Part shown: positions 3,337 through 21,074 of the stretch, in pieces
Layout of the letters: the number at the start of each line of letters is the position of its first letter
Position numbering within the stretch: the first letter of the stretch is position 1
Assembly: GCF_965251085.1 (NCBI RefSeq)
Contig: NZ_OZ252594.1
Location: 1,545,859 to 1,609,858, forward strand
Source: Methyloprofundus sp.
GTDB taxonomy: Bacteria; Pseudomonadota; Gammaproteobacteria; Methylococcales; Methylomonadaceae
Reading direction: 5' to 3'
Length of the DNA: 64,000 bases
The notes under the pieces: model-generated
The model's database searches: none
What the model was told of the DNA's origin: nothing
Seen by the model: only the letters and a program-made list of their open reading frames with translations
Translations under genes and position numbers: made by a program

Positions 3337-4185
3337 AAATTTATACAGCATATTTTAAAGGGCGAATTAGTCAGTGTTGATAAACCAGAGTTTTTGAATG
3401 CTGCAGCCATGGCATTTCCTGATACTGTGGTATTAGCGGTACATCAGGAAACCTTGAGATTATATAGACATGGCCGGCATATTATTCTAACCACGCTAGG
3501 GTTTGTTGAAGAAGATGCTTTATCTGCGCAGGATTTAAAACAATTGTTACTAAGGTCCAGAGTCAACGCTAGTTATGATGTTCAGGCAGCTTATGATCGA
3601 AATATAAAAGGAATTTATAGTGCAATTATTGAGTTTATTAGCCAGGCGACTCTAAGCAAGGGCATGCCGCAGTCCGGTCGCCTATACTGGTTGCGTGAAG
3701 CAAACAGGCATATAGTCGAAGCTATCAAGGATAGTAAACACTTACAAAAGAACCTGATTTTGATGGATACATCTCAAAACCATTTTGTAAAACAGGAATA
3801 TGACAAAATTCGCTTGCAGATAACGGAGTTAATCAGGCAATTAGACAAGTTACGCATTCAGGTAAAGCAAAGCGGCAGTAATGAAATTAACCTACTGTCA
3901 TTTGATATTTTTAAAGTCAAAATCAAAGATCAGGATCAGCAGATGAACGAGAGAATCGATGGTTTGATTCGTGAACACAAAGTGACGCCTGATGCGGGCA
4001 CTTCCCTGATTAATGATAGTGCTTATATGTACGCAATAAAAAAGCATTTAGTGGCGATGGCAGAAACCATTTTTATTGTACAACAAGACAAAATAACGGA
4101 TGCGCAACGTGAAATGGTGCTGGACGAGAATGAATTAATAAATACAATGCAATCTAATAATCCAGGTTTGCAGAGGAAAAAATAA
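3337..4185 (+). pseudogene. Na/Pi-cotransporter 3' part (PhoU-like cytoplasmic domain)
   Basis: After the TSD reads KFIQHILKGELVSVDKPEFL, in frame with ORF 3394..4185; rejoined gene is 611 aa. Confidence 0.85.
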
Positions 4186-11874: not shown

Positions 11875-14800
11875 TTAATAATGCCGTCTTTCCTGAACTT
11901 GCAATGCGAGGCTATATATCACTGGAAACACCAGTAGACTTACTATCAATACCGTTACCATACCGCCTAAAACCGGGGCAGCGATACGCTGAGTAACATC
12001 TGCACCGGTGCCTGTCGCCCACATAATAGGAATCAAGCCTAGCATGGTGGTAAAGGCGGTAATGGCAACAGGGCGGACACGTAGAGCCGTGGCGTATTCG
12101 ACGGATTGTTGAATTTCCTCTGCGCTGAGTGGCGCTTGTTTCTGTTGCCTGAGTCGGGCAATTTCGATATCAATAAAGTTTAGCACCATAACGCCCGTTT
12201 CAGCAGCAGTGCCGGCCAGGGCTATAAAACCAACATAAACTGCCACCGATAAATTAAAGTCATACCAGAAAATCGTCCAGATGCCTCCAATAAGACCGAA
12301 AGGAATGGTTAGCATTACGATAGTCGGTTCAATAAGGTTGCGAAAGGTGAAGTATAACAATACAAAGATTAGTAGCAACGTTAGCGGGACCACAGTCCGC
12401 AGACGCTCAGTAGCACGTTGCATATATTCAAACTGCCCTGACCAGTTGAGCGTATATCCATCGGGAATTTCTACTTGTTCAGCCAGAGTCTTTTTGGCCT
12501 GGCTGACAAACCCCCCTATATCGGAAGTTTTAATATCCACATAAATCCAGGCGTTAGGACGCGAATTTTCGCTTTTAATAACCGGAGGGCCACGCCTTAA
12601 TTCTAGTTCTGCCACTAAGGTGAGTGGTATTTGTACTCCCGTTGGTGTGGGTATCAAAACCCGTTTCAAGCTTTCTAGATTATCTCGTAGTTCGCGTGGA
12701 TAACGCAGGTTGACCGGGTAGCGTTCTAAGCCTTCTATAGTTTCAGTAACATTTATCCCGCCGATAGCAATTTGAATTACATCTTGTACAGCGCCAACCG
12801 TTAACCCATAACGAGCGGCTTCCTCCCGGTTAATATCAAAGTCCAGATAATAACCTCCAACTGCACGGTCTCCAAAGGCTGAAAGTGTTTCTGGCAGGGT
12901 TTTCATTACTTGTTCTATTACTATCGATAAATGCTGTAATACGTTTAAGTCCGGCCCAGATACTTTAATGCCTACAGGCGTTTTAATACCGGTAGAGAGC
13001 ATGTCGATACGGGCTTTAATGGGCATAGTCCAGGCGTTGGCCACGCCTGGAAAGTTAATAGCTTTGTCCATTTCAGTCATTAATTGTTGAGTACTTTTTT
13101 CTGGATCAGGCCATTGATTTTTAGTTTAAGGCGTATGGTGGTTTCAGCCATCGAAAGAGGAGCGGGGTCGGTTGCTGTATCGGCACGACCGACTTTACCA
13201 AAAACAGATTGAACTTCAGCAAAGGTCTTCAAGATCTTGTCAGTCTGCTGTAACAGTTCCTTAGCTTTTGTTATAGAAATTCCCGGAAAGGTGCTAGGCA
13301 TATAAAGTATATCTCCTTCATCTAATGGAGGCATAAATTCGCTACCGATTTTACTTAATGGGTAGGCCGTTGAGGCCAATAATATGATTGCTATGATTAA
13401 GGTCGCCGGACGCCAGCGCATAGCTATTTTTAGCAAAGGGGTGTGAATTAAATGCAGTAAACGATTAGCCGGATTTTTTGTTTTCGGGAATCAGCCTGCC
13501 ACGAATAAAATACCCCATTAATACGGGTACGAGGGTAATTGTTAATATTGCAGCGGCAGCCATCGCGTAGGATTTTGTATAGGCAAGCGGGCCAAACAAC
13601 CGGCCTTCCTGAGCCTGCATTGCAAAAATGGGTATAAATGAGACAGTAATTATCAGCAAGGAAAAGAACAGCGCGGGCCCTACTTCTTTAGATGCGTTAG
13701 TGATAGCTTGCCAGCGTTCTTTCTGTGTCAAATCAGTTTGTTTCTGTGCGCGTGCTTCGGTTAAGTGTTTATGTGCATTTTCCACCATAACAATAGCACC
13801 ATCAACCATATCGCCTATGGCAATTGCAATGCCACCCAGAGACATAATATTAGCATTTATCCCCTGCAGTTTCATAACGATAAAGGCCATCAGTACAGCC
13901 AATGGCAGGGTAATAACGATAACCAGTGATGAGCGTAGGTGCAGTAGAAATAAACCTACCATAAGGCAAACAATGATCAATTCCTGGCTTAGGCTTTAGT
14001 TAAAGTTTGCACAGCACGTTGAATCAAATCACTGCGATCATAAACGGGAATTATTTCTACGCCATTAGGAAGGCCTGCACTCAGTTCATGCAATTTTTTT
14101 TTAACCCCAGCTATGGTCGCTTTGGCGTTTTCACCAAAGCGCATAATAACCACGCCCCCGACAGCTTCCCCTTCGCCATTTAATTCCACTAAGCCCCTGC
14201 GTAATTCAGGACCAATTTGTACATGTGCCACGTCTTGCAATCGAATCGGGGTGCCATTGCTATCTACCCCCAGTGGAATGCTATTAATATCAGCTATGCC
14301 TTTTATATATCCAAGGCCACGTACCATATATTCTGTTTCTGCCATTTCGACCAGGCGTCCACCGACATCATTATTAGATCGTTGAATAGCTGTTTTAACT
14401 TTAGCTAAAGGAATGCCATAAGCGAGTAGTGCATTAGGGTCCACTTCAACCTGATACTGTTTTACAAAACCGCCAACCGAGGCAACTTCTGCAACGCCGG
14501 GCACTGTTTGCAGAGGGTAACGCAGGTACCAATCTTGTATAGAACGTAATTGTGCCAGGTCATGTTGGCCGGTTTTATCAATCAGCGCATATTCAAAAAA
14601 CCCAACCGACGCCGGTAGCATCTGGCCCCAGGGATGGATTAACTCCCTGGGGTAAACGGTTACTGGCATAATTCAAGTACTCTAGTACCCGTGAACGTGC
14701 CCAGTACATATCGGTACCATCAGCAAATATAATATAGACAAATGACAAGCCAAAAAACGAATAACCTCGTACCACCTTGGCTTTAGGCACGGCTAACATT

Positions 14801-15015
14801 GCAGTTGTTAATGGATAAGTGATCTGGTCTTCAACGACTTGCGGAGCTTGCCCCGGGTATTTGGTAAATACGATGACTTGTACATCTGATAAGTCAGGTA
14901 TGGCATCCAATGGCATGTTTTGAAACGACCATAATCCGGCTACTGCCAGAACCATGGCGGCTAATAGGACAATAAAGCGATCTTTGATAGCACTGTCAAT
15001 TAAAGCCTTAATCAT
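11875..15015 (-). pseudogene. cusA: CusA/CzcA heavy-metal RND efflux pump, four frameshifts
   Basis: Five consecutive fragments ([32 protein letters not shown]) span 3141 bp; single-base indels near 14596, 13991, 13476 and 13125. Confidence 0.9.
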
Positions 15016-16372
15016 GTTGATGGCCGGTGTGCAAATTGTTTACAGGCGTGTTTTGTCCTACTTCCTCCGGTGGAGGTAGGGGCTTAGTTGGTTCGAGCAT
15101 TTTTGCTGTTGCTTCGCGTAATTTTGATTCTGAATCCAGTAGGAACTGTGCAGAAATAACGACTTCATCACCTGTTTGAATACCCTTTAAAATTTGTACT
15201 TTTCCATTGGATGCCAGCCCTAGCGTTACCAGTCGTGGTTCGAATTTGCCAGGCGCGCGGACTACAAAAACCTGGTTGCGTACACCCGAACGAATGACTG
15301 CTTCAGCTGGAATTACGATGATATTTGATTGTATGCCTGCCTGAATTGTTACTTCGGCAAACATCTCTGGCTTTAGTAGTAAATCAGGGTTATCAAAAAC
15401 CAGGCGTACTTTTATAGTACGTGTTTTGGCTTCGGCATAAGGGTATATATAGGCAAGATGGCCCGTGAAAGTTTTGCCGGGGATACCCGCCAGTTGCATT
15501 TCTACTGGATCGCCTTGTTTTACCCAGGGTAATTCGTATTCATAGATATCAACTAGAACCCAGACCTTGCTTAAGTCGGCTATCATGTAGATTTCGGTGG
15601 CGGGGGTGATAAATTGACCTTCTCGTGCGCCTATTTTCATCACAATACCGCTACTAGGTGCATGAATATGTAGGCTTTTTTTTATTTTTTGAGTGTGTTC
15701 TAATTCAAGGATTTGGTGTTGAGGGACATCCAGTAATTTTAAACGTTCACGTGAACTTTGTACCAGATCTTCGGCTCCCTTGCGAATATCCTCTATTGGG
15801 CTATTTTCTAGAGCTTTCAAATTATTGATTGCAAGAATATACTCCTGCTGGCTAGCAACTAACTGCGGTGAGTATATACTCAATAGATCAGTATTTTTTT
15901 TCACCCATTGGCCGGTCTTATCCACATTTTGGTGTTCTATCCAGCCTTCGGTTTTAGGGTGTAAATGTACCATGCGCTCTTCATTATAGGTGACTCGACC
16001 TACTGCTCGCACCGTATGTGAAAGTGAGGTTTTTTGTGCAATTGCGGTACGTACACCAATATTTTGCACCGTGACGCCATCAATTGCTAGCGTATTTGTA
16101 GCAACATTTTCATCCTTTGCATATACTGGAATGTAGGCCATTCCCATAGCATCTTGAGTCGGTGTAGGGGAAGTGACTTCCGGATTCATGGGGTTGCGGT
16201 AATAAAGTATTGTAGGGGACTGATTTTTTGTAGTGACTAGTTTATCGAATGGTTCTTCATTATTTTTAATATTGGCCAATCCATAGCCAATAACAAAACC
16301 AATAGTTAGCATCAATGGAGCAATAAAGAGTGCAGGTTTATTCATAAATTTCCTCATTGCCGACAACTGCAA
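15008..16372 (-). CDS. cusB: CusB-type RND periplasmic adaptor
   Basis: [19 protein letters not shown] heavy-metal-binding segment, LKPEMFA. Confidence 0.88.
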
Positions 16373-17618
16373 TCAGTTGTGCTAGAGCTTGATTAGCCTG
16401 AGTTAAGGCTTTCCAGTATTGCGTTTCGTAATTGTACAAAGTGATTTGGCTACGCACTAGGTTTAAAAAATCGACCTTGTTTACCTGATAACCTGCCAGC
16501 ATAGACGCGACGGTTTGTCTTGCCTGTGGAATAATGCCGCTGTTAAATAATACGACTTGTTTTTTAGTTTGCTGAAATTCACTATAGGCCGTTGAAATTT
16601 CAGTGCGTACCTGGTTCCACTGATCTCGGAGAATATAGCGTTGCTGCATTAACTCACTACTGCGTTGATCGACAGCATGACGTTGTTTGCTTGCAGCAAA
16701 AATCGGCACGCTCATACTGAGTTTTAGGGTCAATAAATCAGCGCGCTCTTGACCGGAAAGCGTATCGCTACGCCCGCCATAAAATGCACCGACTTTAAAA
16801 TCTGGATAATAATTTTTTTTTGCAAGATCGAGGCGTAATTGTGCTGCATTGATGGTTTTACGTTGTGCGGATAGCATAGCCCGGGAATCTTCCGCCTGTT
16901 GAAACAAAGATGATTGGTTAAGCAAGGCTGGCAAGGCGCCGAAAAATTCATTATCTAATTCAATAGCTTGATCAGCCGACCTATCCAGTAGCGCGTTCAA
17001 TTGTGCGCAACTTATATCTCTGGCACCCTTTAATCTGATATCAGTATCAAGTAGCTTAGATAATTCTAACTGAGCCAATAATACATCCTGTTGCAAACCT
17101 TCGCCGACTTCGTATTTAGTGCGGGCTATATTAACGAACTGGCGTAAAAGTTCCTGATTGGCCAGAATAATCTCCAGCGATCGATCTATGTAAAACAGCG
17201 TCCACCAGAGTTTTTTTACATCTCGCAGTAAATGCCAGCGTACTTCTGTAACATCTAGCACGGCCGCTTCAGCTTGGTAGACAGCAGTTTGTTCTCGCAA
17301 AGCAAGTTTGCCCGGAAAAGGAATGTCCTGAGAGATGCCGCCTTGTAACTGCGTCATATTATCCTGTGCGAGATCGAAGGTATTAACGGGTAGGTTTAAA
17401 GCATTAAAACTGATAACAGGATCTGGCAAGCTGCCTAATTGTGATGGAATAGCTGCCATAGCTTGGGAGCGCATTTGCATTTGAGCCAGATTAGGGTTGT
17501 CTAGCACAGCGATTTTTAGTGCGGTCTGTAATGTTAATAATTCTGTCTGTTCTGCAATGCTAGTGTTAGATAAACTCAGTAACACTATACAATGTGCTAT
17601 TTTAATCGCTAATTTCAT
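16338..17618 (-). CDS. TolC/CusC-family outer-membrane factor
   Basis: Signal peptide, OEP-like helices, GYQVNKVDFLNL; first gene of the cus operon. Confidence 0.85.
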   Translation of the reverse strand: MKLAIKIAHCIVLLSLSNTSIAEQTELLTLQTALKIAVLDNPNLAQMQMRSQAMAAIPSQLGSLPDPVISFNALNLPVNTFDLAQDNMTQLQGGISQDIPFPGKLALREQTAVYQAEAAVLDVTEVRWHLLRDVKKLWWTLFYIDRSLEIILANQELLRQFVNIARTKYEVGEGLQQDVLLAQLELSKLLDTDIRLKGARDISCAQLNALLDRSADQAIELDNEFFGALPALLNQSSLFQQAEDSRAMLSAQRKTINAAQLRLDLAKKNYYPDFKVGAFYGGRSDTLSGQERADLLTLKLSMSVPIFAASKQRHAVDQRSSELMQQRYILRDQWNQVRTEISTAYSEFQQTKKQVVLFNSGIIPQARQTVASMLAGYQVNKVDFLNLVRSQITLYNYETQYWKALTQANQALAQLIAVVGNEEIYE

Positions 17619-17733
17619 AGATCCTCTTATTTGAAATTACTGATTCACTAGGGTAGCCATGAAATACAGTATAAGTCAGGTTTAATATCAATCAGGAATT
17701 AAATCATCCCCTGATTGTACTAAATGACGATCA

Positions 17734-17892
17734 GGGAGTTGGTAATAAATAATCGTCCAAAAATCACCCAGGATTTTTGTTTCTGTTTAAATCTTCTCAA
17801 GAGGAGCATCGTTATTCTACGCGACGATTGAGAAGATTTAAACAGGAAAAAAAAGACCAGAGAGATTGGATGATTATTTGTTTCCACCTCCC
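17734..17892. mobile_element. Divergent MITE family B copy
   Basis: TIR gggagttggtaataaataatcgtcc / ggatgattatttgtttccacctccc; internal perfect 17-bp arms ctgtttaaatcttctca / tgagaagatttaaacag. Confidence 0.65.
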
Positions 17893-17907
17893 TAAGCCCA
17901 GTGCAAT

Positions 17908-18094
17908 TATACTTCGCGCGGTCACGAATGCGGAAATATAGTGAGCTTATTTTTATCGATAGCAAAGCCTGCCCCGTATTTGATGCGGGGCGCTGAAACT
18001 GGCGCATAGCTGGCTACGTAAGGGTTTCAGAAACGTAGCTATTGGCAAAAAACTCAGCCGCTAGAAATCCTCAGCCGTGACCGCGTGAAATATA
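17908..18094. mobile_element. MITE family A copy (reverse orientation)
   Basis: tatacttcgcgcggtcacg...cgtgaccgcgtgaaatata; core and hairpin module present. Confidence 0.8.
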
Positions 18095-18108
18095 AGATAA
18101 AATAAAAA

Positions 18109-18137
18109 TTGCATAATAAGACGACCGGTCGCATAAT
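18109..18137 (+). promoter_or_regulatory. Sigma70-like promoter of tetR with a palindromic operator in the spacer
   Basis: TTGCAT-17 bp-CATAAT; spacer contains aagacgaccggtcg. Confidence 0.65.
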
Positions 18138-18143
18138 AAGCCC

Positions 18144-18743
18144 ATGTTAAAAACATCCGCAAAACAAATTAAACGTGACAGGTTGCTGGATCAAGGTGTG
18201 CAAATGCTTATGGATCAAGGCTATCATGGCACAGGTTTAAAAGAAATTCTGGATATTGTAGGCATACCCAAGGGTTCTTTTTATAATTATTTTGCCAGTA
18301 AAGAAGTGTTTGCTGCTGAAGCTATTAGCCATTACATTGAACCTTTTTTAATACGCTTAGAGGGGCATTTGCAAAACCCGGAGCTGGATGGATTGACAGC
18401 ATTAAAGCGATATTATGCAGAATTAATTTGCGAGGTGGAACGTATAGGCTACAAGGGAGGGTGTCTGATGGGAAATTTAATGGGTGAAGTAGGAGACACC
18501 AGTGAAATTTGTAGGCGTTCTTTAAAGTCAGCTATTGAGCGTTATAGAAATCTACAAAAAACCGCTTTATTACGCGCGCAAAATGAAGGTACTGTTACTA
18601 AAAATCTTGATGCAGACATTATGTCTAATTTATTAGTTGATCATTGGCAAGGTGCTTTATTAAGAATGAAAATTGAACAATCAGTACACCCTTTGCAGCA
18701 GTTTGTAGAGACATTTTTGGAGGATTATTTTTTAAAAAAATAA
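18144..18743 (+). CDS. TetR-family regulator (NemR-like)
   Basis: HTH GIPKGSFYNYFASKE; C-terminal GCLMGNL with conserved Cys. Confidence 0.88.
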   Translation: MLKTSAKQIKRDRLLDQGVQMLMDQGYHGTGLKEILDIVGIPKGSFYNYFASKEVFAAEAISHYIEPFLIRLEGHLQNPELDGLTALKRYYAELICEVERIGYKGGCLMGNLMGEVGDTSEICRRSLKSAIERYRNLQKTALLRAQNEGTVTKNLDADIMSNLLVDHWQGALLRMKIEQSVHPLQQFVETFLEDYFLKK

Positions 18744-18824
18744 TCAAATTACTATTTATTAATCAGTCCTGCAGGGTGCTGTACTGGATAAACACAATTA
18801 ACCTGTAGTGCACTGTACATTTTC

Positions 18825-18842
18825 AAGACGACTGGTCATCTA
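18825..18842. promoter_or_regulatory. Second TetR operator-like palindrome, abutting the RBS of the DUF4242 gene
   Basis: aagacgactggtcatcta, near-identical to the 18118 site. Confidence 0.65.
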
Positions 18843-18852
18843 GGGGGCTAAT

Positions 18853-19125
18853 ATGCCAAAATATATCATTGAACGAGAAATTCCGGGGGCAGGGCAATTA
18901 ACCGGGAATGAATTACAGCAAATTTCACAGAAATCTAGCTGTGTTTTGCAGGATATGGGGCCACAAATACAGTGGCTAGAAAGCTTTATTACAGCGGAAA
19001 AGGTGTATTGTATCTACATTGCCCCCAATAAAGCAGCTATCCGTACACATGCTGAACGAGGAGGTTTTCCAGCAAATGCTATTGCTGAAATAACAACTAT
19101 CATAGACCCAACGACAGGAGAATAA
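18853..19125 (+). CDS. DUF4242 family small protein (SCO4226-like)
   Basis: MPKYIIEREIPGAG...KVYCIYIAP...HAERGGFPAN family signature. Confidence 0.85.
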   Translation: MPKYIIEREIPGAGQLTGNELQQISQKSSCVLQDMGPQIQWLESFITAEKVYCIYIAPNKAAIRTHAERGGFPANAIAEITTIIDPTTGE

Positions 19126-19189
19126 TCACTACCACTACACCATCATAATAATAAAAGTCATTATTAAAAACTCTGTCATCAGAAAGAAT

Positions 19190-19247
19190 TGTAGGGCGTG
19201 GCTTTAGCCCGCAAGTTGAATAAGGCGGGCTAAAGCCACGCCCTACA
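19190..19247. repeat. GTAG-type REP doublet
   Basis: tgtagggcgtggctttagcccgc...gcgggctaaagccacgccctaca. Confidence 0.8.
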
Positions 19248-19306
19248 ATGGTTCTTTATAGAGTCACTGAATAATTGCACAAAAATTAAATAATTGAGGA
19301 AGAACG

Positions 19307-20680
19307 ATGAATATTTATTCTAGTAAAGCAAAAAATATAGGGTCTAAATGGTTACAGGCCTGTGTATTTACAATAGCTACACTGTTTATTTCTACACCAG
19401 TCTATGCTGATGAAACCTGCCAGTCTCCGTATATGGCTAAAATTGTCGGCCAGGAGGATTTTGTTTATGTCTGGACCTTAGGTATGGACGGCGTAGGGGA
19501 TGAACAGGATAAATTAGTGACGGTGGATGTTAATCCCAAATCAGCCAAGTATGGCAAAGTTATAAATAGCTTGTCGGTGGGTGGCCGCAATGAAGCGCAT
19601 CATTCTGGATTTACGGATGACCGTAAGTATTTATGGGCTGGTGGATTGGATACTAACAAAATATTTATTTTTGATGTCCACACAGATCCGGCTAAACCAA
19701 CCTTACATAAGGTGATTACTGATTTCGTAGCTAAAAGTGGTGGCGTAGTGGGGCCGCATACGACTTATGCTTTACCGGGTAGAATGTTAATTACCGGACT
19801 TTCAAATAATAAAGATCATGGCGGGCGTACTGCTTTGGTAGAGTACAACAATAGTGGAGAATATATTACTACGCATTGGACGCCGACTGATAGCGACTTG
19901 CGTGGCGCGATAAAAACCGGTAAATATGCTGATGGCTATGGTTATGATGTACGCGTACTGCCTAGACGCAATGTAATGATTAGCTCGTCGTTTACGGGCT
20001 GGAACAATTATATGATGGACTTTGGCAAAATGCTGGGCGATCCTGAAGCCATGAAACACTTTGGTAATACCGTTGTGCAATGGGATTTACATGCGCGTCA
20101 GCCCAAAAAAATATTTGATGTGCCAGGAGCTCCTCTGGAAATCCGTTGTGCATGGGACCCAAACCATAATTATTGCTTTACTACAACGGCGTTGACTTCA
20201 AAAATCTGGTTGATCTATGAAGATAAAAAAGGCGAGTGGCAGGCAAAGGAAGTAGCTGATATTGGTGATCCTAGCAAAATCCCACTGCCTGTGGATATCT
20301 CCATTCAAAGCGACGATAACATGCTTTGGGTTAATACTTTTATGGACGGTAAAACACGTGGCTTTGATATATCTGATCCGTTCAACCCCAAACAGATTTT
20401 AGAGCAAAAAATTGGTTCTCAGGTCAATATGGTGTCATCCAGCTGGGACGGCAAGCGCTTGTATTATACTTCTTCATTATTGGCAAATTGGGATAAAAAA
20501 GGCCAGGATAATGAGCAATATCTGAAGCTATATAGTTGGGATGGAAAAAAATTAACAGAGCAATTTACGATTGATTTTATTAAAGAAAAACTAGGTCGTG
20601 CACATCAGATGCGTTTTGGGGCTTATTCGCTTTATGCCGCTAAAACTGATAACAATCTAGTTGCAGAGTTAAATCAGTAA
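19307..20680 (+). CDS. mtoX: Methanethiol oxidase (SBP56 family), periplasmic
   Basis: Signal peptide ending VYA|DETC; EAHHSGFTDD, VGPHT, SSFTGWNNY, LANWDKKG and GRAHQM match bacterial MtoX; SCO/MauG gene downstream. Confidence 0.88.
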   Translation: MNIYSSKAKNIGSKWLQACVFTIATLFISTPVYADETCQSPYMAKIVGQEDFVYVWTLGMDGVGDEQDKLVTVDVNPKSAKYGKVINSLSVGGRNEAHHSGFTDDRKYLWAGGLDTNKIFIFDVHTDPAKPTLHKVITDFVAKSGGVVGPHTTYALPGRMLITGLSNNKDHGGRTALVEYNNSGEYITTHWTPTDSDLRGAIKTGKYADGYGYDVRVLPRRNVMISSSFTGWNNYMMDFGKMLGDPEAMKHFGNTVVQWDLHARQPKKIFDVPGAPLEIRCAWDPNHNYCFTTTALTSKIWLIYEDKKGEWQAKEVADIGDPSKIPLPVDISIQSDDNMLWVNTFMDGKTRGFDISDPFNPKQILEQKIGSQVNMVSSSWDGKRLYYTSSLLANWDKKGQDNEQYLKLYSWDGKKLTEQFTIDFIKEKLGRAHQMRFGAYSLYAAKTDNNLVAELNQ

Positions 20681-20772
20681 TCAATATATTATGAAGACCT
20701 GCAACCTTTAGTCATATTTAAACATCTCTGTTATTTTTGTTTTTGCAAGACAGAGAAATTTCTTATAACAAG

Positions 20773-20917
20773 GTTCCTGCGCGCTTTTAGCAGGAATCTT
20801 GTTGACGAAACAATACCTGATTTCCCAGAACTCTTAGCTTTACTTCGTCATCCTATGCTTTAGCAGGAATCTCTTAGGTTAAGCACAGATTTCCGACAAA
20901 AGACTTCGGGAATAACG
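20773..20917. repeat. ATTCCC/GGGAAT-type hairpin repeats, reverse of 10801..10876
   Basis: cgtcatcctatgctttagcaggaatc...gatttccgacaaaagacttcgggaataacg plus an extra half copy. Confidence 0.7.
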
Positions 20918-21074
20918 TGACTCTTAACATGCTGTTATTTTAAACGTTTTTTAACCTGTAAAAATCAGTTGCTTACGTTTTATAGGTTTAATATGGCTGT
21001 GACTTGTATGTAATCAGGATGATTTTTATTAGCGAATTTGCACAGTGCTATGTAAATAAAAAGGTGCACGAGTT

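Follow-up and report, generated by a model that had tools for sequence, protein, structure and literature searches.

A candidate TetR-family autorepressor and its paired 18-bp palindrome at the methanethiol oxidase locus of methanotrophs

Methanethiol arises in the sulfur cycle as a toxic intermediate, and how methanotrophs switch on MtoX, the periplasmic methanethiol oxidase, is undescribed. The question is raised by a tetR-DUF4242-mtoX-sco/mauG gene run in a 64,000-nucleotide stretch (the window) of the Methyloprofundus sp. genome, a single 4.94-Mb contig with 41.8% G+C (NZ_OZ252594.1, positions 1,545,859 to 1,609,858 of the forward strand). A first-pass annotation of this stretch had drawn attention to near-identical palindromes in the tetR promoter spacer and at the ribosome-binding site of the DUF4242 gene, and had read the genes as a co-oriented run under the control of a NemR-like repressor. 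Pfam and NCBIfam models do identify the four genes, all on the + strand (Table 1). The analysis presented here suggests, with a probability of about 0.72, that a local, self-regulated TetR repressor controls tetR-DUF4242-mtoX-(sco/mauG) through the two palindromes, which we call O1 and O2.

The two sites have in common the 13-mer AAGACGACYGGTC, one copy of which lies in the tetR promoter spacer (18118-18130) and the other, 707 bp away, 20 bp before the DUF4242 start codon (18825-18837). No other exact match exists in the window or in the whole genome, where base composition would lead one to expect 0.18 copies; the probability that chance adds a further copy less than 1 kb away is ~2e-5. When the genome was scanned with a position matrix derived from the sites at orthologous loci (consensus TAAGACGACCGGTCGTCTTA), O1 ranked first (25.6 bits) and O2 second (22.6 bits), which bears out the palindromes as first described. 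The third-best match, of 18.6 bits, overlies an argD-like start codon and was dismissed as chance, three identical 18.5-bit matches, flanks included, were taken as copies of a repeat, and no credible third operator emerged from this genome-wide scan. Since O1 and O2 head the ranking and the next match is a chance one, the regulon in this genome is predicted to be local. The candidate operator comes as two copies of one 18-bp palindrome with the consensus TAAGACGACC/GGTCGTCTTA.

The position of O1 is that expected of an autorepressor: the palindrome occupies the 17-nt spacer between TTGCAT (18109-18114) and CATAAT (18132-18137), that is, a candidate operator sits at tetR's own promoter. Only 6 nt separate the end of the -10 box from the ATG, and that codon is preceded by no Shine-Dalgarno sequence; the predicted transcription start is therefore the A of the ATG or a base beside it, which would make the tetR mRNA leaderless. 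This promoter layout recurs in 13 of 13 orthologous loci inspected, with -35 boxes up to a perfect TTGACA and a -10 box reading CATAAT, TATATT or TAAATT. The surroundings of O2 are different in kind. In most species the tetR stop codon precedes O2 by only ~20-30 nt, too little for a terminator or a -35 box to fit in; a terminator scan after tetR found none, and an alignment of 49 O2 regions displays an A/T-rich, -10-like stretch after the operator and no -35 box. O2 may act either as a roadblock or by covering an internal promoter.

The relatives of the Methyloprofundus genome, gammaproteobacterial methanotrophs of the order Methylococcales, allow the arrangement to be followed through evolution. 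TetR orthologues are carried by ~90 further loci from Methylococcales and Nitrosomonadaceae, which we compiled as two sets: 20 mtoX loci from the same genus and order, with 1.5 kb of upstream flank inspected, and the top 80 loci by TetR similarity (55-77% identity to the window TetR), in which only the recurrent gene clusters after tetR were identified. The second set comprises methanotrophs (Methylomonas, Methylobacter, Methylomarinum, Methylotuvimicrobium, Methyloglobulus, Methylovulum, Crenothrix, Methylocaldum and related metagenome-assembled genomes) and the nitrifiers Nitrosomonas, Nitrosospira and Nitrosovibrio; methane and ammonia oxidisers thus account for nearly all of the top 80 orthologues. 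Among the mtoX loci, tetR lies within 1.5 kb upstream in 14 of the 20. Four more have DUF4242 and no visible tetR; three of these retain an operator of at least 15 bits and one (L001) a decayed copy, and in two of the four the flank reaches the contig end, L001 ending before the expected tetR. The remaining two (L011 and L014) lack both tetR and DUF4242 and contain no motif of at least 12 bits, thereby providing a natural negative control. The other two of the four loci with DUF4242 and no visible tetR, L016 (G006:C33) and L006 (G008:C202), are from two species of the same genus and have an operator before DUF4242 and no tetR within the 1.5-kb flank, the L016 operator being accompanied by a tetR-type -35/-10 promoter; their repressor may have been lost, have moved or lie beyond the flank.

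In the TetR-based set, DUF4242 directly follows tetR in 60 of 80 loci (counting the window together with the 80 loci, the DUF4242 cluster comprises 65 members), and the gene after the pair is mtoX in 26 cases, a gene for an SBP56-like propeller in 17, one for a TPR protein in 8 and metY in 3. Elsewhere tetR is followed directly by mtoX (4/80) or by the TPR gene (5/80). Judged by gene order, the constant partner of TetR is DUF4242, with mtoX as its commonest cargo and not the sole one. The operators keep their places: where a first site was scored, its centre nearly always falls at -17 from the tetR ATG, and O2, which has a counterpart in most loci, is centred 24-39 nt ahead of the gene next to tetR, whichever that is, and so before mtoX itself where DUF4242 is absent (L004, L018, L019, L041 and L048). 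Operator position is thus conserved across ~80 species and two proteobacterial classes, as are the motif and the tetR-mtoX linkage that the first-pass annotation had named as checks in relatives.

Three of the cargoes deserve mention in their own right. At L100 (5012-6184) and 17 further loci (for example, L055, L062, L076 and L102), in many Methylobacter and Methylovulum genomes, mtoX is replaced after tetR-DUF4242 by a gene for a 390-aa periplasmic beta-propeller with a signal peptide, whose similarity to SBP56/MtoX is faint (27 bits with Pfam, 35 bits with the MtoX model) and which may be a second, uncharacterised thiol-oxidising enzyme. At L084 (4990-6750) and 12 further Nitrosomonas, Nitrosospira and Nitrosovibrio loci, tetR-(DUF4242) and both operators precede a gene for a secreted TPR-repeat protein of ~586 aa, with no adjacent mtoX. 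Finally, a metY-type O-acetylhomoserine sulfhydrylase gene (778 bits with PRK06084) comes third after tetR-DUF4242 at L086 (5133-6404), L046 and L047, all from metagenome-assembled genomes of methanotrophs; MetY is an enzyme that uses sulfide or methanethiol. At L086 an additional operator-like site of 21.8 bits lies ~220 nt before the mtoX gene that follows metY.

Transcript evidence came from a relative. RNA-seq assembler contigs of two coded organisms, D and E, differ at ~6-9% of positions from locus L039 of Methylotuvimicrobium sp. KM1, which has the same four genes and both operators. Mapped on L039, they display low depth upstream and a rise that sets in soon after tetR begins: in run X37, where the operon is tens of times deeper than the flank before tetR, the summed depth is 313-862 before position 4047, 3,400-33,000 in tetR and 17,000-45,000 in DUF4242 and the 5' end of mtoX. 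Single contigs span tetR, O2 and DUF4242 (X36 record 11, X25 record 3), overlapping contigs span DUF4242 and mtoX (X36 records 12-14), and depth falls ~7-fold after mtoX. These contigs are consistent with one unit that starts from the tetR promoter and reads through O2. A terminator-like insert, GCGGCTTCGGCCGCTTTTT, lies in the D and E contigs just after mtoX (L039 ~6414), where depth falls; less maturase than oxidase may be made. Four sequencing runs that contain the window itself were also tried as RNA evidence and rejected, because their flat depth and contigs that break only at repeats mark them as DNA.

Several observations weigh against single control of the whole run. The gap between DUF4242 and mtoX, 181 bp long owing to the insertion of a REP-like (repetitive extragenic palindrome-like) element, holds a hairpin with a perfect 25-bp stem, and the segment 19120-19310 that contains it folds with a z-score of -8.95; the hairpin lacks a T-tract and was not picked up by the terminator scan, so that it is not a classical terminator but may attenuate read-through, in which case mtoX might need a promoter of its own. 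A further spacer of 394 bp (20681-21074), unique in the window genome, separates mtoX from sco/mauG; its counterparts in relatives measure roughly 60-230 bp. A consensus scan around O2 found no canonical promoter, which bears on the mode of O2 action, and 12 tetR-DUF4242-SBP56-like loci have no O2 of at least 14 bits, which means that O2 is not obligatory and that one promoter operator can suffice. The RNA contigs derive from another genus, their depth reflects expression poorly and some of the signal may come from carried-over DNA. As for the signal, the cysteine aligned with the redox-active one of NemR is also present in AcuR, PA2196 and 3knw and is thus common to the whole clade, so that it provides no specific evidence for a thiol switch, and two other NemR cysteines, Cys21 and Cys116, are missing from the window TetR, where Met/Leu and Gly117 are the aligned residues.

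Two alternatives concern the architecture itself. According to one, the repressor in this genome regulates no genes beyond its own and DUF4242, whereas mtoX-sco/mauG forms a separate unit with its own promoter after the REP-like hairpin, the adjacency reflecting shared function. Such a division would fit the hairpin-bearing gap, the constancy of DUF4242 and not mtoX as the partner of tetR, and the failure of the motif search of the window and of the matrix scan of the genome to find a third operator before mtoX. Against it stand the nature of the hairpin, which belongs to a dispersed family of ~175 arms and lacks the features of a terminator, the shortness of the DUF4242-mtoX gap in relatives (often only 8-100 bp), the placement of O2 directly before mtoX where DUF4242 is missing and the RNA contigs that span DUF4242 and mtoX in the Methylotuvimicrobium relative; we therefore regard a separate mtoX unit as rather unlikely. 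The other alternative, that the two palindromes are a chance repeat or members of a mobile repeat family, draws on the richness of the region in dispersed repeats, but is practically eliminated by the count of two exact copies in the genome, both at the top of the matrix ranking, by their fixed distance from start codons in ~80 species of two classes and by the absence of the motif where tetR is missing.

Control by the TetR repressor would operate as follows. Since O1 fills the spacer of a sigma-70 promoter, a dimer bound there would occlude RNA polymerase and block initiation, and the leaderless mRNA should keep translation of the repressor low. With no signal present, dimers would sit on both O1 and O2, the one on O2 blocking read-through as a roadblock or covering a weak internal promoter; the two blocks together would hold the cargo more tightly than tetR. 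An inducer would release the repressor, whereupon DUF4242, MtoX and the maturase would be made. This inducer would most probably be methanethiol or a direct derivative (a mixed disulfide, sulfide/persulfide, H2O2 or formaldehyde), acting in a ligand pocket that contains the invariant Cys107, with Lys176 and Cys123 nearby in sequence. Methanethiol or its products are favoured as the signal because the cargo is sulfur-related (MtoX, MetY), because transcription of mtoX is methanethiol-inducible in Ruegeria (PMC5739008) and because methanethiol is toxic to methane oxidation: it inhibits methanotrophy, and MtoX has been proposed as a detoxifying enzyme of methanotrophs (PMC9003020). Given that inhibition, a periplasmic oxidase made on induction would serve for detoxification.

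The repressor itself belongs to a known structural clade. It scores 39.6 bits with PF00440 (cut-off 24) and 60.9 bits with PF16925, TetR_C_13 (cut-off 27), and its best NCBIfam model is AcuR (NF051457), at 149.1 bits well below the equivalog cut-off of 247. Its best sequence matches in the PDB are 3knw, 3bru (AcuR of Rhodobacter sphaeroides), 3rd3/4l62 (PA2196) and 4yze (NemR), and an AlphaFold2 model of nine helices (predicted local distance difference test score of 92) retrieved 3bru, 4l62 and 4yze as the best Foldseek matches, with TM (template modelling) scores of 0.85-0.90 and ~30% identity. The protein is thus a separate subfamily within the AcuR/NemR/PA2196 clade and an orthologue of none of the three. 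The description as NemR-like holds as far as clade membership and 31% identity go, but AcuR and PA2196 are at least as close to the protein as NemR is, and its best model is AcuR. The cysteine of the GCL motif, which the first-pass annotation had noted as retained, is Cys107; it aligns with NemR Cys106, as Lys176 does with NemR Lys175, and is invariant in 69 TetR orthologues, a set in which conservation reaches at least 90% for Lys176 and for Cys123, the latter specific to the clade.

AcuR, from the acuR-acuI-dddL operon of R. sphaeroides, is the closest working analogue. The two regulators have the TetR_C_13 fold in common, 3bru being the best Foldseek match. AcuR is encoded by the first gene of its own operon, with an inverted-repeat operator overlapping the promoter, and the geometry of the window tetR fits the same design. 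Leaderless autorepression from such an operator has been demonstrated experimentally for acuR (PMC3017554), whereas the leaderless tetR mRNA is predicted from promoter geometry. Both also belong to organosulfur catabolism, downstream of dimethylsulfoniopropionate (DMSP) or methanethiol. They differ in sequence (~30% identity in the structural alignment; the 149 bits quoted above against 247), in the operator, which is TAATAGAC-n6-GTCTATTA for AcuR (PMC3017554) and AAGACGACC/GGTCGTCTT at the window locus, in the number of operators (one versus two) and in cargo, that of AcuR being acuI/dddL, with acrylate as inducer, and that of the window TetR being DUF4242/mtoX. No acuI-like gene follows tetR at the window locus, and none is found among the recurrent post-tetR clusters of the 80 loci.

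Escherichia coli NemR (nemRA-gloA, 4yze) likewise heads its operon, and the region upstream of nemR contains TAGACCGACTGGTCTA between a -35-like box and the ATG. The proposed kinship of the window sites with the NemR operator is borne out in wording and not in geometry: TAGACCGACTGGTCTA and O2 have the 9-mer CGACTGGTC in common, but GACC-N4-GGTC in NemR is replaced by abutting GACC and GGTC at the window locus, so that the palindrome centre differs and the half-site spacing of the NemR box TAGACC-N4-GGTCTA is unlike that of AAGACGACC/GGTCGTCTT. The cargo differs too (nemA/gloA), and the two proteins are non-orthologous. The sensing chemistry ascribed to the NemR cysteine likewise needs to be divided. 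According to a review, Cys106 and Lys175 form a sulfenamide that senses chlorine species (bleach), as the first-pass annotation had it for HOCl, whereas electrophiles are sensed by Cys21 and Cys116 (PMC7464077), both of them absent from the window TetR. PA2196 of Pseudomonas aeruginosa, the second-best structural match (TM 0.86-0.90, 30% identity), belongs to the same clade and has an unlike genomic context; its solved DNA complex (4l62, operator-bound) would be usable as a modelling template.

Cys107, Cys123 and the pocket around them also provide the evidence on which competing views of the signal turn. The module might sense copper or nickel, with TetR and/or DUF4242 adjusting production of MtoX and the SCO1 chaperone to the amount of metal available. 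MtoX depends on copper and is paired with SCO1 (PMC5739008), DUF4242 is distantly related to nickel-binding SCO4226 with Cys53 and His66 invariant, TetR has two conserved cysteines, and the top 80 orthologues stem almost only from organisms whose methane or ammonia oxidation depends on a copper monooxygenase. Yet characterised relatives in the clade respond to small organic or reactive molecules; the TetR sequence has no CxxC or similar metal motif and the model places Cys107 and Cys123 at the starts of different helices (108-115 and 121-148); the metY cargo points to sulfur; and SCO4226 is matched only weakly, with an E of 0.14 in a search of PDB sequences. Metal sensing is therefore very unlikely in our estimate. 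The repressor could alternatively be a classical reversible ligand binder for methanethiol or another small organosulfur compound or acid, without cysteine chemistry. Halomonas AcuR is reported, from affinity measurements, to bind acrylate and DMSP in a pocket lined by the equivalent cysteine together with Tyr, Lys/Arg and Trp (PMC13104084), and Tyr64, Lys104 and Trp168 are conserved in the window TetR; on the other hand, Lys176, the counterpart of NemR Lys175 of the sulfenamide switch (PMC7464077), stands highly conserved alongside the invariant Cys107, as does the clade-specific Cys123. We consider reversible binding possible, if on the unlikely side. Thiol or redox sensing through Cys107 is plausible, judging from residue conservation, and a covalent thiol switch is the version to which we give appreciable odds, somewhat short of even.

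A broader and speculative proposal, which we think unlikely as it stands, would make TetR-DUF4242 a conserved two-protein module of methane and ammonia oxidisers for volatile-thiol sensing and protection. In it, DUF4242, with its Cys/Cys/His residues, would be a thiol-, persulfide- or copper-handling factor, Cys107/Cys123 of TetR would read a methanethiol-derived modification and varied cargo, periplasmic or sulfur-assimilating, would have been recruited repeatedly (MtoX, the SBP56-like propeller, MetY, the TPR protein). Methane and ammonia oxidisers depend on copper monooxygenases, which are poisoned by sulfur compounds.

The mechanism proposed is conventional, that of a standard local TetR autorepressor; what is new is its target, a defined operator, a second, internal operator, DUF4242 as the constant partner and the extension to nitrifiers. 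The first-pass annotation had known of no described regulator for mtoX, and this has to be corrected: an IclR-family gene beside mtoX in Ruegeria pomeroyi has already been published (PMC5739008). That gene, SPOA0268, lies directly upstream of mtoX-SCO1-mauG, is apparently co-transcribed with them and is methanethiol-induced (PMC5739008), but it belongs to the IclR and not the TetR family, has no DUF4242 partner, comes from another taxon, the Roseobacter clade, and has an undefined operator. In the literature the IclR-type gene of Roseobacters is the only regulator reported beside mtoX (PMC5739008), and our search retrieved no paper linking methanethiol oxidase with the TetR family, or DUF4242 with methanethiol. 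The locus thus offers a concrete candidate regulator with an 18-bp operator for much of Methylococcales, among them genera that have tractable laboratory strains, such as Methylotuvimicrobium, and extending to nitrifiers; it ties three unstudied proteins (DUF4242, the SBP56-like propeller and the TPR protein) to the same putative switch; and the repressor-operator pair could serve as a methanethiol biosensor part, if the inducer is confirmed.

Table 1. Coordinates of genes, predicted operators and promoter elements in the window
Feature	Position	Strand	Remarks
-35 hexamer of the tetR promoter, TTGCAT	18109..18114	+	Read directly; TTGACA or TTGCAT at the equivalent position in orthologous loci
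Operator O1 (predicted), AAGACGACC/GGTCGCATA	18118..18135		Within the 17-nt promoter spacer, overlaps the -10 box
-10 hexamer of the tetR promoter, CATAAT	18132..18137	+	6 nt before ATG
tetR, TetR-family repressor, 199 aa	18144..18743	+	Pfam TetR_N and TetR_C_13
Operator O2 (predicted), AAGACGACT/GGTCATCTA	18825..18842		Abuts the DUF4242 Shine-Dalgarno sequence GGGGG (18843-18847)
DUF4242/SCO4226-like protein, 90 aa	18853..19125	+	Pfam PF14026, 91.6 bits
REP-like perfect 25-bp hairpin between DUF4242 and mtoX	19188..19249		
mtoX, periplasmic methanethiol oxidase, 457 aa	19307..20680	+	NCBIfam NF052453, Pfam SBP56
SCO1/SenC-MauG fusion, 627 aa	21075..22958	+	Pfam SCO1-SenC and CCP_MauG

The products of the run can be named with differing precision. 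The 457-aa protein scores 789.9 bits with the NF052453 methanethiol-oxidase equivalog (cut-off 650) and 177.8 bits with PF05694 (SBP56), and a SCO1-MauG fusion is encoded downstream; on the strength of the equivalog score, the SBP56 fold and the neighbouring SCO1/MauG gene, we assign it as MtoX. The fusion protein is presumed to be the MtoX maturation factor, the mtoX-SCO1-mauG arrangement having been described (PMC5739008). Among the 65 DUF4242 sequences, Cys53 and His66 are invariant and an ISQKSC motif is near-invariant, its cysteine being displaced by one residue in the window genome (QKSSC); these conserved residues could form a metal or thiol site.

The REP-like palindrome in the DUF4242-mtoX gap, with the arm GTAGGGCGTGGCTTTAGCCCGC and a loop of ~12 nt, has relatives all over the genome: 84 forward and 91 reverse arms (at most 3 mismatches), usually in inverted pairs, are found at ~90 other places, and short-read DNA assemblies break at the palindrome.

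Upstream of tetR lies a cusCBA-like heavy-metal efflux operon (~11875-17618, minus strand), divergent from tetR. Its outer-membrane factor (426 aa) and CusB-type adaptor (454 aa) are intact, and the gene for the resistance-nodulation-division (RND) pump appears broken: a first piece of 140 aa is recognised as RND (ACR_tran), and downstream open reading frames of 226, 171, 118 and 401 aa on the same strand look like the remaining pieces, the profile scan having covered, of these pump pieces, the first one only. Control of the divergent genes (14593-17618, minus strand) by TetR was considered and rejected, because the upstream neighbours are conserved in no relative and the pump gene is fragmented. 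Between this operon and the tetR promoter, the 525-bp region upstream of the promoter contains nested inverted repeats in 17730-18100 (17733-17760/17866-17893, 17774-17800/17828-17854 and 17907-17941/18061-18095). Some 18-mers of this region occur in 16-32 genomic copies and DNA contigs fragment there; it looks like decayed miniature inverted-repeat transposable element (MITE)-like repeats inserted beside the -35 box.

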